From: Escherichia coli
GTDB lineage: Bacteria > Pseudomonadota > Gammaproteobacteria > Enterobacterales > Enterobacteriaceae
NCBI GenBank assembly: GCA_025336685.1
Contig: GCA_025336685.1_4717.1
DNA: 64,000 nt
Strand: one strand, 5' to 3'
Positions 52,329 through 59,660 of the stretch are shown piece after piece; the stretch's first letter is position 1; each line of letters starts with the position of its first letter. Under the pieces are notes generated by a model. The model ran no database searches, was not told the origin of the DNA, and saw nothing but the letters and a program-made list of their open reading frames with translations. The translations under genes and the position numbers were made by a program.

Positions 52329-54482
52329 TTATTCTGCGGTTTCTTGCTTCGGTAAATAACTTGCTGCGATGTCTTGGGCCAACAATGTATTGTTTTTATT
52401 CGAGATGAAAATACCGTAACTTTCCATTAACGCATAATACGAACGAACGAGCGTAGAGATCAGTCGACGAATATCCATACCTTGAATAAAGATATCAGGA
52501 AGCCCGGAGGCTTCGATCACCGGTAATGGTATCGTTAAGTTGCTTATCGTTTTCTTATCGTTACGTACAATCCAATCACGGAAACGTTGTTGTAACCCTT
52601 TATCCTCCCATGAATCAATCCAATCATTAAGAAGCGTTTTGTTCTTCGTCGCCAGCGGTACACGAACCCCAACATAAGGCGGTTCAGAGCAATGGCCGTA
52701 CGATTGAGCAAACACCTCTTCCCACATATCGTAAGACTGTTTCGTTACTGCAACATGTGGTTTCACTTTAACACGTGTTAAGAAATCGGGGTCACCTCGT
52801 TTCATTGACTCAACGATTTCGTTTTCTAACGAGATGATATCATCAAGAACCAATCGAATACTGATCTTCTCGTTACGTAACAGCTTATCCATGATACCAC
52901 ACATCATCCGCTCAACACGTTGGACGATCATCTTCGGCGCTGATGCGTCGCGCATAACAGGGCCTTTCAATTCCAGCTTCGGTGGATTGATAGGAACCCC
53001 TTCACGCATGGTCATGTATCCGTAATAGTTTTTACCCATCGAGGTTAACGACAGGATTAAGAACATATATTCGTTCTTCATCTCCATTACGTACATATGC
53101 TCTTTCGCTACACCGATATTACCAGAACACATCGCCATCAGATGAACCGTAATCTGCGTAACCAGATAGATAAGCGTGTTTGCTAAGCGCGTCGAAATTG
53201 GATTGATCTCCATATTTCCAAATCGCCACTGAACCCACTCCTGGCAGGTAAACACCGTCGAGTCGGTATCAGACAACACACCCACTTCACGGATTGCCGA
53301 CGGAAAAGCATAAACGCCTGCCGGTTGGTTCTCGGTACGCCATAACGCCTTAATTAAATCAGCGTAGCTTTGGATGCGTTGCAGCATTAATTTTGTCGTT
53401 GCTGCAGTAAGACGATAACCGAGTTCATTTCCTTTTTCTAGCGCTACGTAAATCGCTTCCCCGTTCAAGAACTCCGTGCATTGTGCTGTAATCCAAGCTA
53501 CCGTGTTGTTATCCATGGAAGCAATAATGGCTTTAGCCTCTTCCATCGTTTCAACAGGTTCGGATGCCAGTTCACATAACGAGTCAAGAAAATCTCGAAC
53601 AAATTCAGGATTAAGCTCACGTAACGAGTACAGGTTATTGCTGTACATGTAGCAGGCACGTTCCAACGGCGTTAAACCGGTAATTAGCTCCCGGATGGTC
53701 AGCTCTTTCTCTGGGTCGAAAGTATACCGATGTAAGCATTTCGATACGTTAGCCCAAACCTCTTCCGGCGTAGGGTAATGCAGTTTGTATTTTACCATTA
53801 CCTGCTCAATGGCTTTACGATCGCTGTTACGGACAATACTCACGATGTTTTCAATTGCGATATCACAATCGTAATAATGGAAATTACCCGCAAGGAAGCG
53901 TTCGTTGTTCGCATTGGCTGAACCTGAAGCACAGCGACATGTTGTCGTTAGACTCGGATGCGCGATCGGATTGTAAAATGGGTTAAACTTGGACGCTTGG
54001 GTTCCTGACAAGCTGTTGTTATCTAACTTGGTGTTGGTTTGTCGTTTATCGTGTAACTCAGCTTCGTCTTTACGTCCGTGAGCTTGCGCTATCGACATTT
54101 GTTTCTTCTGTTTCTTACGCAACTTACCGTTTTCAACCGCAAAGTCGCTTAGCACACTGGAACGTGTTTCACGTGGATAACAGTTAGCCCATACCGGCGT
54201 GATAATTAAATTATTTTCTTTAATATCGTTGAAGTATTGGCTGAACTTGATGACTTCTTTTTCTCGGTTTCCTTCAGTACGCTGTGTTAGTACAAGGCAG
54301 TCGGGATCAACCATCCCGTATTTTCCACCAGGACTAACCGTATCAAGAACAAACTGCAACGCTTCCTGCTGAGAAATCCCACGCATGCGCATTAAGAACA
54401 GGGTATAATCCTGTACCGCTTCTTTGGTCATATCCAACGTACGGCCATATCCGTTTTCATCGTAAAAGAACGGATTTTCCAT
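52329..54482 (-). CDS. hypothetical 717-aa protein
   Basis: Long ORF, GGAGG RBS; no confident motif. Confidence 0.55.
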   Translation of the reverse strand: MENPFFYDENGYGRTLDMTKEAVQDYTLFLMRMRGISQQEALQFVLDTVSPGGKYGMVDPDCLVLTQRTEGNREKEVIKFSQYFNDIKENNLIITPVWANCYPRETRSSVLSDFAVENGKLRKKQKKQMSIAQAHGRKDEAELHDKRQTNTKLDNNSLSGTQASKFNPFYNPIAHPSLTTTCRCASGSANANNERFLAGNFHYYDCDIAIENIVSIVRNSDRKAIEQVMVKYKLHYPTPEEVWANVSKCLHRYTFDPEKELTIRELITGLTPLERACYMYSNNLYSLRELNPEFVRDFLDSLCELASEPVETMEEAKAIIASMDNNTVAWITAQCTEFLNGEAIYVALEKGNELGYRLTAATTKLMLQRIQSYADLIKALWRTENQPAGVYAFPSAIREVGVLSDTDSTVFTCQEWVQWRFGNMEINPISTRLANTLIYLVTQITVHLMAMCSGNIGVAKEHMYVMEMKNEYMFLILSLTSMGKNYYGYMTMREGVPINPPKLELKGPVMRDASAPKMIVQRVERMMCGIMDKLLRNEKISIRLVLDDIISLENEIVESMKRGDPDFLTRVKVKPHVAVTKQSYDMWEEVFAQSYGHCSEPPYVGVRVPLATKNKTLLNDWIDSWEDKGLQQRFRDWIVRNDKKTISNLTIPLPVIEASGLPDIFIQGMDIRRLISTLVRSYYALMESYGIFISNKNNTLLAQDIAASYLPKQETAE

Positions 54483-54556
54483 AAATCCTCCAAAAGTTAT
54501 TTAGTCTGTCTACATCATCTCGTATATCTGTTAAAAAAGAAGGACGGCATAAAAAG

Positions 54557-54584
54557 AACCGATCCAGCCGAAGCCAGATCGGTT
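54557..54584 (-). terminator. hairpin AACCGATC ... GATCGGTT followed on the minus strand by CUUUUUAUGCCG
   Basis: 8-bp stem, U-rich tail. Confidence 0.55.
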
Positions 54585-54638
54585 TAAAGGATAATAACTG
54601 ACTGAAAGATATCGATGATGTTCGTGAAACAAGATCTT

Positions 54639-54687
54639 CTCTCGTGTTACAATGATGCCAGATCAGAGGGAGGTTGTAACACGAGAG
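54639..54687. repeat. perfect 14-bp inverted repeat CTCTCGTGTTACAA / TTGTAACACGAGAG with 21-nt spacer
   Basis: Lies in the 300-nt intergenic region between the 54781 stop and the 54482 start. Confidence 0.6.
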
Positions 54688-54780
54688 ATGGTTCGCCAAA
54701 GAAGGAATAAAAAACACGAACCTATCTTATTTCACTGATGGCACTAACCACTCAAAATATATAGTACCGTATGTAAAAGT

Positions 54781-55194
54781 TTACTGATTAATCAAGTCGT
54801 TAGCAACAATCTTGGTGTAACCCGCCTGATTAAGAATTTGATTAATTTTTGTCATGTCGGTCGCATCCTCGATAACGATGCTAGGTTTATAGATCAGCGT
54901 CTTGGTAACGACGATCGTGCTCTCCTTAATCCAAGGAATCCCTAAAATCACATACTCACCATCAGCTGTGATGACCTCGACGTAATTGTACTTCGTCGGA
55001 TCGTTCGGTACACTCGACGGGAGCCGGGAATAAATCTGTTGGTGAATGGCGTCCACATCGCGGCCGTTACGTACGGCGGTACGATAATTGTACACCGCGC
55101 TAATTTCTACTCCGTTGAAGTTAACCCCAAGTTCTGGGGCGTACACATCAAAACTCACAACAGAGCCAATCTTTTCTAAATCAGAAGCTGGCAT
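54781..55194 (-). CDS. hypothetical protein
   Basis: 137-aa ORF, RBS AAGGA. Confidence 0.45.
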   Translation of the reverse strand: MPASDLEKIGSVVSFDVYAPELGVNFNGVEISAVYNYRTAVRNGRDVDAIHQQIYSRLPSSVPNDPTKYNYVEVITADGEYVILGIPWIKESTIVVTKTLIYKPSIVIEDATDMTKINQILNQAGYTKIVANDLINQ

Positions 55195-55205
55195 AATAGC
55201 ATCCT

Positions 55206-55727
55206 TTATTTAAAAATGTATTCATATCCGAAAGTCGTCGCCGACCAGACCCGGATAGATGATAGTGTTCCACCACGATAAAACGTTTTTGTGAACTCCA
55301 TATCCTGGACAACACGATAATAAACACGTCCGATAATACGTACGATAAGATATCGTGATAACGATCTCTCCTCGCAGTACTCATCGATAAAGTCATCGTC
55401 GATATCCGATAAGACAACATCTGCGATTTCTTGCAGTAGATTCCTCATCAGCATCTGCCTTCCTTCGGTACCCCACCCAGACAAACAGTAATCGTCTTCC
55501 GCCTGACTATAGATGTCGTTAACCGCCTGTTCGAGCAGTTGCTCAAGATAGTAGTCATCGCGCTTTATAACGTGGCGACGGCGCTCAGTGGCGTATTTTT
55601 CCATCCTGTGTTTCTCTTGTTCGGCGTATGTATTAACGACGCCACAGTCTTTTCTGGATCGTCCCACAATGCGCGACGAAAACTGGATACTACCATAACG
55701 GTAGGATAGATTTGTACGACCTCCCAC
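55206..55727 (-). CDS. hypothetical protein (start uncertain)
   Basis: ORF from track; overlaps upstream ORF by >100 nt if the first start is used. Confidence 0.3.
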   Translation of the reverse strand: MGGRTNLSYRYGSIQFSSRIVGRSRKDCGVVNTYAEQEKHRMEKYATERRRHVIKRDDYYLEQLLEQAVNDIYSQAEDDYCLSGWGTEGRQMLMRNLLQEIADVVLSDIDDDFIDEYCEERSLSRYLIVRIIGRVYYRVVQDMEFTKTFYRGGTLSSIRVWSATTFGYEYIFK

Positions 55728-56053
55728 CCGTAACGATGCGTGTTAGTCGTACGACCGACATTGAACAGACATAACTGATTTAAGAAACAGAGCTGCATCT
55801 TCGTAAACAACACCATGTCTTCACGTTTAACGTATCCGAGGATATATGCATTCTCGAACGCCTCGCGTGACAAGACAGGACGATTAAGATACCGCAACGC
55901 TAATACCAGCAACGTTGTTATACGCAACGGATCTTCCGGGTCATTCATGGTGTTCAGCTCTGCTTGTAACCAGTCGGGGATAGTAACCGTCAGACGATAG
56001 GTATCTGTTCCACGATCAACCACATTCAACGTTGAAAAAGGCAACATATCCAT
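55565..56053 (-). CDS. hypothetical protein (start uncertain)
   Basis: ORF from track. Confidence 0.3.
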   Translation of the reverse strand: MDMLPFSTLNVVDRGTDTYRLTVTIPDWLQAELNTMNDPEDPLRITTLLVLALRYLNRPVLSREAFENAYILGYVKREDMVLFTKMQLCFLNQLCLFNVGRTTNTHRYGWEVVQIYPTVMVVSSFRRALWDDPEKTVASLIHTPNKRNTGWKNTPLSAVATL

Positions 56054-56591
56054 GAATTCCTTCTAGCTCGAGGTTGTTCTCGACGGTCTTCGGTAATAAC
56101 CCACTGGCCGTTAACATCTGTGTCATCGAGTAATCAAAGCACGGAAATATAAGGTTAACGGTTTCCTGGATCGCGTCAACATAACTATAAATGGCTTCAT
56201 AATACTCACCGTCATGATCTACGCTAACCAGTTCCTGACACAGTTCTTCGCTTATCATTTCATATACCGGTGGATACCACGATTGAAATGGTCGCTGCAT
56301 ACGTAACGACCAGTACTCGTACGTCGTATACTGAAGCACGTCATAAGCCGATACGTTAATGCGGTCGAAGAAAGCATACTTGTCCATATGCTGATACAAC
56401 ATCGCCAGTACGGTTTCCAAGCACACCGATATCCGCACGCCATCATCTTTCCCGTTAAGAAAATTAGGTTTCTGCCGATAACGCACAAATGCCGACGGCT
56501 TTGATTGTATTATTCCACCACCAACCATAACGTCATACTCGTATCTAACGTAAAATTGAAATGCCACCAATCTTCTACACGTGGAATCCAT
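56016..56591 (-). CDS. hypothetical protein (start uncertain)
   Basis: ORF from track; no good RBS at any candidate start. Confidence 0.3.
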   Translation of the reverse strand: MDSTCRRLVAFQFYVRYEYDVMVGGGIIQSKPSAFVRYRQKPNFLNGKDDGVRISVCLETVLAMLYQHMDKYAFFDRINVSAYDVLQYTTYEYWSLRMQRPFQSWYPPVYEMISEELCQELVSVDHDGEYYEAIYSYVDAIQETVNLIFPCFDYSMTQMLTASGLLPKTVENNLELEGIHGYVAFFNVECG

Positions 56592-56995
56592 GTACGAAGG
56601 ATTTGGTTAACTTCGCTTCGCATCACCGATAAACGACAACGAAAGTCGAACTTCTCATCGTGGCCGTAGTCTTCATGCATGAAAACTTCATCCAAAACGA
56701 ACTCAAGTTGCGTGTCTACATCACGACCGGAGATATTTCGTTTGTACAGATACAGTTCAATCGTGTCGTAAAGCAACGTATGAATATCATAATTTCCGTT
56801 CGGCGAGAAATAAGGTAATCGCTCATCGAGCATCGAAAACAGATACTCACTGTAGTTTAATAACGGGATGATGTACCGACGTCCGGTCTGTGGTGTGCGA
56901 ATATGTATCGAAACCTGACTTGGACGCGGAATAGCCGACGGCTTAGAATCGTCTCTCTGAAATTGCTCTAAAGATCGCAACAAAGGTGGCCGCAT
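56510..56995 (-). CDS. hypothetical protein
   Basis: ATG 56995 (MRPPLLRS) with GGAGAG RBS. Confidence 0.35.
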   Translation of the reverse strand: MRPPLLRSLEQFQRDDSKPSAIPRPSQVSIHIRTPQTGRRYIIPLLNYSEYLFSMLDERLPYFSPNGNYDIHTLLYDTIELYLYKRNISGRDVDTQLEFVLDEVFMHEDYGHDEKFDFRCRLSVMRSEVNQILRTWIPRVEDWWHFNFTLDTSMTLWLVVE

Positions 56996-57239
56996 TGTAA
57001 CTCTCCAACGCCCAATTGTAAGGCCCTTCCAACATGTGTTCCCATACGTGAATAAACTCACTACCGAAGACAGGCTCGAGCGCCATGGTGAGATTCGTAA
57101 GTTCTGACGCTGCCGCATGGTAAGCATCAACATGTCTTTCCATCGACGGATCGTCTTCATTGAAAATACGTTCTGTGTCGCCAGCCCTCTCAATAAGTTC
57201 GGTAATGAGATCTGTCCATGTTTCGTGGCACGTCATCAT
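56943..57239 (-). CDS. hypothetical protein
   Basis: ATG-ATG at 57239/57236 (MMTCHETW) with AGGAA upstream. Confidence 0.3.
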   Translation of the reverse strand: MMTCHETWTDLITELIERAGDTERIFNEDDPSMERHVDAYHAAASELTNLTMALEPVFGSEFIHVWEHMLEGPYNWALESYNAATFVAIFRAISERRF

Positions 57240-58167
57240 TTCCTGTTCTCGACTTAGTATTCCGATGTCTGCGTGGACGCTGGACTCGAACCGGTCTAAA
57301 AGGACCCGAAGAACATGCACCTTGTCGATGTATTTCACCGTTATCCAAGAAAGCGGTCGCCATCGACTCAGCGTCCATCCGGTACTCGGGAACCCCAAAC
57401 TCATATAGTACGGGTTGCACGGGACCGAAGACGGAGCGACGTTGTTTAAATCGTTCCTTAATGGCAATGCCCTGTTTAATGTAAATGGGTTCATTGGCGA
57501 GTTGTTTCGCTTTTCGTTTCGCGTGAGCCAATCGAAGTTCTTCCAATTGCCCAAGCCATTCAAATTGTTCATCTGTTAGCTCCTGGGGACGTTCAACAAT
57601 CGCGCCAGATGGGCAGACATTGATCGTGATGTTAATTGATGGCATCGCCATCACTTGAGGGTTACTATTACGTACGCGGACAACATGTTCGGTTGCTGAC
57701 TTACGATCAACGCAATACTCTGTTTCTTGGAACTCAAATGCTTTTAACGGTGTTGGTTTTGTTTGATGTTTCTTAACACGACCAAGATCAACGATATAGA
57801 CATAGTCGCACACACGCTCTATTCCGTAAATACGGTTATCCGACCAGTTCTTACCAAACAGCTTGTTGTGATGATAAGACAAATATTCGGTTACCATACC
57901 CTGAACAACATCGAAGTCTTCTCGAAAGTCAGGTTGATACCAAATCGGGCCGAGAATATCTGCGAACGATTCGTGACGATATCGAGGATCATGTCGAGTC
58001 CAGGGCATTCTCTGATTAAGATCGAAATCCACCAACAATTCCGTTAATTGCAGTTTTTCCTTCGGAGAAAGCTGGCGTTGATGATGCAAACTCAAGCAAT
58101 CGATAAGTGGTAATGAAACCCACGATGCTAATGTGTACAAATCGATCCTGGCTAGTCTCTTGGTCAT
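57190..58167 (-). CDS. hypothetical protein
   Basis: ATG 58167 with AGGAAA RBS; C-terminal ~45 aa Arg-rich. Confidence 0.4.
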   Translation of the reverse strand: MTKRLARIDLYTLASWVSLPLIDCLSLHHQRQLSPKEKLQLTELLVDFDLNQRMPWTRHDPRYRHESFADILGPIWYQPDFREDFDVVQGMVTEYLSYHHNKLFGKNWSDNRIYGIERVCDYVYIVDLGRVKKHQTKPTPLKAFEFQETEYCVDRKSATEHVVRVRNSNPQVMAMPSINITINVCPSGAIVERPQELTDEQFEWLGQLEELRLAHAKRKAKQLANEPIYIKQGIAIKERFKQRRSVFGPVQPVLYEFGVPEYRMDAESMATAFLDNGEIHRQGACSSGPFRPVRVQRPRRHRNTKSRTGNDDVPRNMDRSHYRTY

Positions 58168-58258
58168 ACTCTTTTCCTAAGTCCCCATTGTTTATACACA
58201 CGATATCTGGGAATAGTTAAAATATACGGCGTAAAACGAAATAGGAGAGTTTCTGGCA

Positions 58259-58390
58259 TCATTTTCTCCCTCTTCGAATACCACCGATACCTCTTCGATC
58301 CAAGACGTCCCAAGCACGCTTTATTTCTTCCTCCCGTTCCTGATTCCAATCGTTAAATCGTTTTCTTATTTTATCCCACCACTCTCCCAT
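58259..58390 (-). CDS. small basic protein (43 aa)
   Basis: ATG 58390 (MGEWWDKIRKRF) with AGGAG RBS just downstream of a terminator. Confidence 0.3.
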   Translation of the reverse strand: MGEWWDKIRKRFNDWNQEREEEIKRAWDVLDRRGIGGIRRGRK

Positions 58391-58412
58391 GCTTTCTCCT
58401 ACACGGCATAAA

Positions 58413-58434
58413 AGCCTGCCCCGAAGGACAGGCT
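58413..58434 (-). terminator. hairpin AGCCUGUCC-UUCG-GGGCAGGCU followed by UUUUAUGCCG
   Basis: 9-bp stem (one G.U), UUCG loop, U-tract. Confidence 0.55.
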
Positions 58435-58443
58435 CGATAGAAC

Positions 58444-58644
58444 TTAATAACCATCCAATTTCAATGAAGGATGGTTGACGATATGTGCGTGTTTTGCTGG
58501 GTCGTATGGTTGATATGGAAAATAACCATGCCACTGACGACCTTGGCATTTCGTACATACGAACTGACCATCGCTTCGCTGATTCTCGTAAGCGAGTTCA
58601 GTACTATCAACATGACCGCAACGTTCGCAGATAAACAGCGACAT
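58444..58644 (-). CDS. small zinc-ribbon protein
   Basis: CERCGH ... CTKCQG, 66 aa. Confidence 0.4.
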   Translation of the reverse strand: MSLFICERCGHVDSTELAYENQRSDGQFVCTKCQGRQWHGYFPYQPYDPAKHAHIVNHPSLKLDGY

Positions 58645-58826
58645 AGCGCATCTCCATTCACTTGAACTTTTTGGTTCGGTGTTAGAAAAGCAAGAAACCG
58701 CTGTTCTTCGCTTCCGCTACAGTTTCGTCACCAACTTTCGGTGCCTGTTGACGCGCGTTACGATGTTCGATGTAACGTTTCGCTTCGTCAGCGATTTGTT
58801 TGATAATACCCTAAACGATCCAGTAC

Positions 58827-59660
58827 TTAAAACAAACGACGTCGCTTCTGAATCAGGCTGCTTTCAGGTACAAAACCGTCACAGCTGTAAATAGCGTTAA
58901 CACCCATGACTTTAGTCGCGTCTTTCGGATAAAGCGTACAGAAAGCAATAGGACTATCGTTCTCTTTCGTCCAATCGTATCCCACGAACGTATTCAGTTC
59001 GGTGATCGTTGGTTCCAAACCGGTAACACGTGGATGGTTTAAGAAGTTTTCCAGGTCGGCGCTGTCAAGACGACGGTTCTCACCAGAAAACAGAACACAA
59101 AGCTGGCTAATAACAACCTGCACGTCCAGGTTGACATCCTGCTCCGATTTCCCATTTTCGCCATTCATGTGATAGCTAACAATCACCGGACGTTTCAATC
59201 CTTCTGCAGCTGCCATCAGTCCTTTAAAGGTACGATCGGCGTTGATCGTTTGACGCTCATCATCGAACGAGGCAACGATGCAACACACCACACGTTCACC
59301 GCGTTCCAGCAGGTTAGCAACCAACGCAGGACCTGCAACAGAACCTGAACCACCGCTCAGACTAAAGACCACGATATTAAATTTACCAGGCGTATGCTTA
59401 TTGAGAATGCCTGGGATTTGTGAACAGATCAGTTCAGCGTTCTCATCACGCTTCTTACCAGAACCGTCTAACTCACGACCCGCCGCATCTTTAAAGATGT
59501 AGATATGATCGTCGTCCAGTGCGCTATCGCGTAGGTTAGCCCGGCTGGTATCAACATACGTCATGCTGTGTAATCCTTTCGCGACTTCGCCTTCAAACGC
59601 TGAGCCGATTTCGCCACCACAACCACCAACAGCCCAAATATGTACTTGGTTCTCTTGCAT
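58827..59660 (-). CDS. phuZ: PhuZ-like phage tubulin
   Basis: IWAVGGCGGEIG (tubulin/FtsZ N-terminal G-box) and FSLSGGSGSVAGP (GGGTGSG-type loop); block order matches PhuZ as I recall it; 277 aa, apparently lacking a C-terminal tail. Confidence 0.75.
   Translation of the reverse strand: MQENQVHIWAVGGCGGEIGSAFEGEVAKGLHSMTYVDTSRANLRDSALDDDHIYIFKDAAGRELDGSGKKRDENAELICSQIPGILNKHTPGKFNIVVFSLSGGSGSVAGPALVANLLERGERVVCCIVASFDDERQTINADRTFKGLMAAAEGLKRPVIVSYHMNGENGKSEQDVNLDVQVVISQLCVLFSGENRRLDSADLENFLNHPRVTGLEPTITELNTFVGYDWTKENDSPIAFCTLYPKDATKVMGVNAIYSCDGFVPESSLIQKRRRLF

Follow-up and report, generated by a model that had tools for sequence, protein, structure and literature searches.

The region described here occupies positions 55,206 to 58,167 of a 64,000-nucleotide (nt) stretch of the Escherichia coli assembly GCA_025336685.1 (hereafter the window), where six open reading frames (ORFs) of the minus strand, A to F, run into one another like the steps of a staircase. 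The surrounding 4-kilobase (kb) stretch shares 95.7% nucleotide identity with Escherichia phage vB_EcoM_Goslar (Goslar), a nucleus-forming jumbo phage, and ORFs A–F are its gp237–gp242, every one of them deposited as 'hypothetical protein'. The tubulin gene PhuZ and two small genes lie on one side of the cluster and an SH3DP-domain gene on the other; beyond the latter come a divergent DNA polymerase gene and then chimallin. At their longest, the ORFs cover 57190–58167 (A), 56943–57572 (B), 56510–57193 (C), 56016–56591 (D), 55565–56053 (E) and 55206–55727 (F). Their frames (start coordinate mod 3) are 0, 2, 1, 2, 1 and 2, and each stop falls within the next ORF. In these respects the sequence confirmed a preliminary description of the region, which had offered two readings, genuine overlapping genes or longer genes broken by indel errors. 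We delimit the genes as follows:

57190–58167, minus strand: gene A, 325 amino acids (aa), Goslar gp237; basic, with an Arg-rich C-terminal tail; ATG 58167 follows a AGGAAAAGAG Shine–Dalgarno sequence
56943–57338, minus strand: gene B, 131 aa from GTG 57338; Goslar gp238, deposited as 98 aa from ATG 57239
56510–56995, minus strand: gene C, 161 aa, gp239; ATG 56995 is preceded by GGAGAG; 36–45% identity to 17_C and 18_x
56016–56528, minus strand: gene D, 170 aa, gp240; ATG 56528; N-terminus MxGG..KPS in common with 18_C
55565–56047, minus strand: gene E, 160 aa, gp241; ATG 56047 lies within D's tail codons
55206–55604, minus strand: gene F, 132 aa, gp242; ATG 55604 lies within the G-W codons of E's tail (GWKN)

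Judged by comparative sequence analysis, the region very probably consists of six genuine, conserved, separately initiated overlapping genes. The first of the two earlier readings is thereby borne out: the frames are kept in 12 genomes (with one exception, L025), selection is purifying, two distant relatives carry separate orthologues, and synonymous variation is suppressed where the genes overlap.

A MAFFT alignment of the window with Goslar contains 170 substitutions and no indels inside 55206–58167. An alignment of seven sequences from three sublineages (98.4%, about 95% and about 86% identity), which includes three Logan contigs reached through an 85%-identical A protein, is likewise free of indels. 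Five more metagenome assemblies (89–96% identity) add only two changes: a 1-nt insertion in a T-run three codons ahead of F's stop in L025 (near window position 55217), and a nonsense codon (CGA to TGA at A codon 323) three codons ahead of A's stop in L022. These end-trimming variants suggest that the extreme C-termini of A and F are dispensable. In all, the frame structure is common to 12 independently assembled Goslar-like genomes (86–98% identity) over 2,962 nt, and no relative has a fused ORF. We conclude that the staircase is genuine and not a sequencing or assembly error.

Each frame also carries its own coding signal. In the alignments, most variable columns are third codon positions when read in the frame of the ORF concerned, and the dominant phase changes at about 57340–57400, 56995, 56530, 56050 and 55610, i.e. 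at the proposed starts; selection is purifying in every frame from A to F. A log-likelihood score of codon usage, for which 28 long ORFs of the window served as training set, agrees and puts the change from A to B near 57330. Where the C, D, E and F frames extend far upstream of the proposed starts, relatives have stops or non-synonymous changes, so those stretches are not coding.

More distant relatives were reached with phmmer, using an artificial fusion of A (residues 1–277) and B as query against 1.84 billion representative proteins. The search found no protein spanning both parts of the fusion and returned two distant A homologues, P0010 (280 aa, 29% identity) and P0009 (334 aa, 32%). The contigs that carry these two homologues, L017 and L018, come from two uncultivated relatives and are syntenic with the window: both read DUF7484, PhuZ, a CxxC protein of 62–64 aa, the A homologue, a further five small genes, SH3DP and DNA polymerase. 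BLASTP supports orthology in both contigs for B (32–33%), C (36–44%) and D (25%), and in L018 only for E (22%) and F (25%); E and F of L017 are positional assignments. A–F are thus separate genes across a clade with 55–78% protein divergence (22–45% identity). The related genomes that the preliminary description had wished to see compared do carry six separate genes, but not well-spaced ones, as most overlap in the relatives too.

The overlap of 40–80 nt given in that description does not hold as a uniform range. With start codons conserved across relatives, the overlaps in the window are 149, 53, 19, 32 and 40 nt, and their counterparts vary in length:

57190–57338, minus strand: A/B overlap, 149 nt in the window (47–50 nt with the annotated ATGs); 89 nt in L018; none, or possibly 20 nt (GTG 6217), in L017
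56943–56995, minus strand: B/C overlap, 53 nt in the window; 83 nt in L018; 41 nt in L017
56510–56528, minus strand: C/D overlap, 19 nt in the window; 22 nt in L018; 34 nt in L017; junction homologous in L017 and L018
56016–56047, minus strand: D/E overlap, 32 nt in the window; 35 nt in L018; 35 nt in L017; junction homologous in both
55565–55604, minus strand: E/F overlap, 40 nt in the window; 79 nt in L018; 20 nt in L017; start homologous in L018
F and the SH3DP-domain gene (G): no overlap in the window (11-nt spacer); 19-nt overlap in L018; none in L017

An 82-nt value for C/D depends on ATG 56591, which is GTG or CTG in relatives. Four of the starts can be placed on conserved codons of the gene upstream:

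start of C: at the N-A, N-D or D-V codons of B's conserved YN..TFVA tail (aATGcg in the window, aATGac in L017, gATGtc in L018)
start of D: at the L-W codons of C's LD.S..LW tail in the window, at the same place in L017 and one codon upstream in L018
start of E: at the (Y/D)-V codons of D's G(Y/D)V tail in the window, L017 and L018
start of F: at the G-W codons of E's GWKN motif in the window and L018; non-homologous in L017, where the frame relation differs and the start is uncertain

The B/C, C/D and D/E starts therefore sit at homologous or adjacent codon positions in both L017 and L018, and the E/F start is shared with L018 only. Because these junctions are homologous between proteins with only 22–45% identity, the overlaps must already have existed in the common ancestor and been retained; they are old features of the clade. 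A Shine–Dalgarno-like sequence (GAAGGA, CAGGA or AGGAGAG) precedes E across the three lineages, the alternative E start ATG 56053 is ACG in L005-7, and in the same L005-7 the F frame has stops upstream of F. In L018, the B, C and F frames are open upstream of the called starts and align with the window N-termini (B, MKYVKP.. with VKYIDK..; C, MSTSRSRTSNLSSLL.. with MRPPLLRSLEQF..; F, MEKCKARP..RRDD with MEKYATE..KRDD), so the gaps left there by the gene caller are probably artefacts. The start codons of Goslar gp238 (B; NC_048170) and of L018 8917, 9251 and 10690 (B, C and F) accordingly appear to have been set too far downstream; with the homologous starts further upstream, both the proteins and the overlaps become longer. 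Even as deposited, the annotation of the whole 237-kb Goslar genome has 13 same-strand neighbour pairs that overlap by at least 19 nt and five that overlap by at least 30 nt, four of these five being in this cluster; the run of five consecutive long overlaps is far above the genome-wide expectation.

If the shared segments encode two proteins, synonymous sites in them should vary less than elsewhere, and they do. Third-position counts were taken within the clade, over ten Goslar-like genomes, with Fisher P values for suppression in the overlaps of 2e-6 to 6e-9. Third positions of A vary in only 1 of 32 codons within 57338–57240, against 113 of 238 in the body of the gene (Fisher P=2e-7), and those of B in 6 of 33 codons where it overlaps A, against 31 of 42 where B is alone (P=2e-6). 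The B/C overlap has a single variable column in 53 nt, with B third positions variable in none of 16 codons; the corresponding counts are 0/9 codons of D in the D/E overlap and 1/12 codons of E in the E/F overlap. Each short overlap is underpowered alone, but pooled over the C, D and E overlaps 2 of 26 codons vary, against 222 of 422 in gene bodies. The signal reaches further for A, whose third positions match those of L018 in 21 of 29 codons (72%) of the overlap, compared with a saturated 0.31 elsewhere (binomial P=5e-6). Both frames are thus under selection in the shared segments.

Several C-terminal tails had been described as Arg/Trp-rich and non-native in appearance. For A this is partly right: its tail is Arg-rich (isoelectric point (pI) 11.6), its last 17 or so codons are relaxed, and the last ~23 residues have no counterpart in relatives. 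However, the Arg-rich motif RPVRVQRPRR of A has a counterpart, RPVRRQRR, at the C-terminal end of its L018 orthologue and so is not junk, and the tails of the next four proteins, B, C, D and E, are native sequence, since they can be aligned with those of their orthologues. In L017, gene A ends (TAATAA) just ahead of the Arg-rich tail region. Since the N-terminal helix of B is recognizable in all three lineages and the tail of A is absent from L017, A's tail is the likelier newcomer, suggesting that this Arg-rich, disordered-looking segment is a younger frame overprinted on B's N-terminal helix.

The size of the A/B overlap turns on where B begins. GTG 57338 is found in 10 of 10 Goslar-like sequences checked and the homologous codon is ATG in L018, whereas the annotated pair of B ATGs is ACA CTG in L005-7 and L026 and ACG ATG in L022 and L025. 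The peptide that follows GTG 57338, KY(I/V)..V..(L/I)R.LLDRF..SV, is conserved. An AlphaFold2 model of the 209-aa B ORF has low confidence (overall predicted local distance difference test score (pLDDT) 47) and was used solely to locate helix starts; residues 1–73 are coil with pLDDT below 30, and a helix starts at about residue 74–79, its pLDDT of about 59 being the same as that of the remaining helical bundle. A longer B from ATG 57404 was rejected, as the B-frame peptide upstream of (V/M)KY is unconserved in L018. We consider GTG 57338 the probable, though by no means certain, main start of B in the genus; ATG 57236 may also be used where it is present.

Synonymous constraint also extends beyond the overlaps, into zones of 66–81 nt ahead of the B and C starts:

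57339–57420, minus strand: constraint upstream of the B start; A third positions variable in 2 of 27 codons (P=3e-5)
56996–57062, minus strand: constraint upstream of the C start; B third positions variable in 4 of 22 codons, against 31 of 42

The second zone begins at a C-frame GTG (57061). Folds of the two zones are not unusually stable (z = -0.02 for the B zone and +1.5 for the C zone) and neither matches an Rfam family. Antisense genes were considered and rejected, as the plus-strand ORFs 57218–57484 and 57160–57408 lose their start or gain stops in relatives. The constraint in these zones is thus not accounted for by overlaps, RNA structure, an Rfam family or an antisense ORF.

Downstream of F, the cluster ends with two further features:

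54781–55194, minus strand: gene G, SH3DP-domain protein, gp243; Pfam PF20287 E=1e-36; separated from F by an 11-nt spacer, no overlap
54557–54584, minus strand: intrinsic-terminator-like hairpin downstream of G; matches a terminator annotated in Goslar

Gene G is 55–63% identical to its L017 and L018 orthologues. A pattern scan found the hairpin to be the sole minus-strand terminator-like site in 54300–58900, with none inside the cluster. In published Goslar RNA sequencing, raw counts for gp236–gp243 at 30 min post infection correspond to read densities within about 2-fold of one another, and the log2 changes seen when ChmA is knocked down are small and uniform (0.03–0.6), the ChmA-knockdown transcriptome matching early infection (10.1101/2023.09.20.558163, Supplementary Table 2). 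The even density and response, together with the lack of an internal terminator-like site, fit a single early transcription unit. A–F and the SH3DP gene probably form that unit, with G as its last gene, beside the divergent DNA polymerase.

What the overlaps might do can be put as follows. Each downstream gene begins at a codon within the 3' coding part of the gene upstream, in another frame, so that the shared nucleotides would encode two proteins. Ribosomes would initiate at each internal Shine–Dalgarno and start site; those translating the upstream gene would cross the internal start and terminate 19–149 nt beyond it, and the output of neighbouring genes would thereby be linked. Linked output would suit the subunits of one complex. 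A is basic, B, C, D and F are acidic and E is near neutral (pI 7.8); these charges, like the common operon, would fit A–F forming one complex, which is speculation. In its full form, the proposal is that the staircase is a selected expression device for six early complex subunits, linked to SH3DP and DNA polymerase, whose ratios or order are set by ribosome traffic and which has been kept since the clade's ancestor.

Several observations weigh against this proposal or the annotation on which it builds. In E. coli experiments, termination–reinitiation coupling requires overlaps of 1–4 nt and collapses within about 20 nt (PMC10666635); the stop–start distances here, 19–149 nt, lie outside that range, so classical coupling may not operate. 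Predicted accessibility of the start regions (0.26–0.67) does not stand out from the background (0.40 +/- 0.12) and offers no hint that structure masks them. The B start preferred above has only a weak Shine–Dalgarno sequence (GGA), a better one precedes ATG 57236 in the lineages of Goslar and the window, and the codon homologous to GTG 57338 is GTC in L017, so that B starts elsewhere there. Within the overlap, B and its L018 counterpart agree at a mere 0.30 of third positions; at deep divergence the A frame is thus weakly constrained, and A's tail may be only mildly functional. Finally, gp237–gp242 are not listed in Goslar virion mass spectrometry. With these points taken into account, we regard a functional role of the overlaps in expression as possible but doubtful, and the full proposal of an expression device for a six-subunit complex as tentative and somewhat unlikely.

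The genes could be just as genuine if the overlaps had no function of their own. They would then be frozen accidents of start and stop drift in a fast-evolving accessory module, persisting since their removal needs simultaneous changes in two proteins. The lengths do differ by lineage (A/B 149, 89 or none, possibly 20; B/C 53, 41 or 83; E/F 40, 20 or 79), the end of A is relaxed over 17 codons and shortened by three in L022, Goslar has nine further overlaps of 19–50 nt elsewhere in its genome, and the reported limit on reinitiation coupling (PMC10666635) speaks for the same explanation. Drift accounts less well for starts that, at three junctions (four in L018), have stayed on homologous or neighbouring codon pairs despite 55–78% divergence; moreover, five or six consecutive long overlaps would be very unlikely at the genome-wide rate (about 13 in ~215 pairs), and a 237-kb genome is under no evident space-saving pressure. 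We consider the frozen-accident explanation quite possible, if short of probable.

Explanations that would remove the overlaps, or the separate genes, fare much worse. Programmed ribosomal frameshifting or transcriptional slippage might fuse adjacent ORFs, for instance A and B by a +1 shift near 57340, where native-looking A ends and native-looking B begins at nearly one nucleotide; the nucleotides around this junction are strongly conserved, and the annotated ATG of B is missing in two sublineages. But none of the five junctions contains an X_XXY_YYZ heptamer or a homopolymer of at least 6, the required shifts alternate between +1 and -1, and each downstream ORF has its own ATG or GTG, which is conserved. 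In L017, B starts a few nucleotides after the TAATAA that ends A, and in L018 the homologue of the B start is ATG; with neither a stable RNA structure nor an Rfam match in the zones described above, and no fused homologue among the representative proteins, fusion is highly improbable. An equally slim chance attaches to the idea that the overlaps are annotation artefacts and each gene truly starts past the previous stop. Gene callers do set several L018 starts downstream, leaving gaps, yet the next in-frame starts in the window (C 56833, D 56486, E 55948, F 55484/55454) would delete N-termini conserved in L017 and L018, and the synonymous suppression in upstream genes coincides with the overlaps. 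As for sequencing or assembly indels, or recent pseudogenization, having broken one or a few longer genes, the second reading of the preliminary description, the staircase look and the odd Arg-rich tail invite it, and PhuZ in the same window does have private indels. Identical frame structure in 12 independent genomes and two distant lineages, purifying selection in every frame and the lack of any relative with a longer intact ORF leave this option with practically no likelihood.

Database comparisons say little about what A–F do. They matched nothing in Pfam or PHROG scans, an A-family profile had zero matches among PDB sequences, tblastn against 50,697 phage records matched only Goslar, and word-indexed protein searches returned only close (Goslar-like) relatives. 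As far as these searches reach, A–F have no detectable homologues of known function and are specific to the Goslar-related clade of nucleus-forming jumbo phages. An AlphaFold2 model of A was unusable (pLDDT 34), and we found no publication treating gp237–gp242. Paralogy among the six was not significant by BLASTP or hhalign, the best pair being C and D (E=0.06). There are exactly two copies of the 11-mer AAGCCGTCGGC in the 64-kb window, at 56491–56501 and 56934–56944 on the minus strand; each copy directly follows the preceding gene's stop codon and encodes SKPSA near the N-terminus of C or D. As a weak hint, the pair may be a remnant of an old duplication.

Three observations concern the genes upstream of A. 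Immediately downstream of PhuZ, a 66-aa protein with two CxxC pairs (58444–58644, minus strand) is probably a zinc ribbon; its position is kept in L017 and L018, whose copies are 42% identical to each other. Compared with Goslar, L003 and L005-7, the homologue of gp236 (~58164–58560, minus strand) has lost 189 nt (breakpoint 58335). The nearest relative of the window, L002, has the same deletion and a single-nucleotide difference from the window at 58287; decay of the gene in this sublineage is probable. PhuZ itself (58680–59660, minus strand) is cut to 277 aa, compared with 326 aa in Goslar, by three private indels (-1, +1 and -2) near 58849, 58821 and 58812, within ~40 nt, which shift its C-terminal 49 aa (GIIKQIADEAKRY...GFLLF) into another frame. 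The indels occur in none of the 15 related loci, the nearest relative (98.4% identical) among them; either the assembly is wrong here or the PhuZ tail has truly been lost.

Overlapping frames at gene junctions of tailed phages are familiar from tail assembly chaperones of the lambda G/GT type, which are made by a programmed -1 frameshift. A–F resemble them in having such frames and differ in lacking a slippery site, in having their own start codons and in the alternating direction of the shifts; they are no frameshift system. Small phages overprint genes (phiX174 B in A, K across A/C and E in D; the MS2 lysis gene), usually ascribed to extreme genome compaction, and the younger overprinted frame tends to be basic and disordered. 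Like those pairs, A and B code in two frames of the same strand, and A's tail is basic and disordered-looking as younger frames are; unlike them, A–F belong to a 237-kb genome in which intergenic gaps are many, and their overlaps are confined to gene ends instead of taking in whole genes. Erwinia phage Ea35-70 likewise has eight small hypothetical genes on one strand, gp208–gp215 (L011 4699–8968), in the slot between PhuZ and SH3DP/DNA polymerase. Their junctions are mostly overlaps of 4–8 nt or gaps, with a single long overlap (34 nt) in place of a run, and they have no detectable sequence or profile similarity to A–F. The unrelated genes of this Agricanvirus suggest that the slot is a hypervariable accessory region of chimalliviruses.

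In cellular operons, short co-directional overlaps (ATGA or TAATG) with termination–reinitiation coupling are enriched among subunits of heteromeric complexes (PMC6728339, PMC10666635). Like A–F, they join same-strand neighbours that share out-of-frame nucleotides within one operon; they measure 1 or 4 nt, with stop beside start, whereas in A–F the start precedes the stop by 19–149 nt. In the 338 prokaryotic genomes surveyed by Palleja et al. 2008 (PMC2478687), every co-directional overlap above 60 bp turned out to be a misannotation; the longest verified one, holD/rimI of Enterobacteria, spans 32–56 nt (PMC2478687). It shares with A–F a conserved out-of-frame overlap of tens of nucleotides in which both protein ends are conserved among relatives, but it is a single pair, while A–F present five consecutive pairs (six in L018), of which A/B (149 nt; 89 nt in L018), B/C (83 nt in L018) and E/F (79 nt in L018) exceed its 56 nt. 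If the overlaps do act as an expression device, the dual-frame region of 149 nt (89 nt in L018) would surpass any co-directional overlap verified in cellular prokaryotes (56 nt, PMC2478687). Long co-directional overlaps are commonly written off as annotation errors and gene callers penalize them; the comparative evidence assembled here points to a run of five to six that is real and old, in a genome without an obvious need for compaction, and it also suggests that the deposited start of Goslar gp238 and those set by gene callers in several orthologues need moving upstream. Goslar serves as an experimental model of nucleus-forming phages, which makes the cluster tractable for testing the effects of overlap on translation and the role of the module. 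Out-of-frame co-directional overlaps are already known, and A–F are a further example; what is unusual about them is a run of five to six such junctions, kept over deep divergence in a very large genome.

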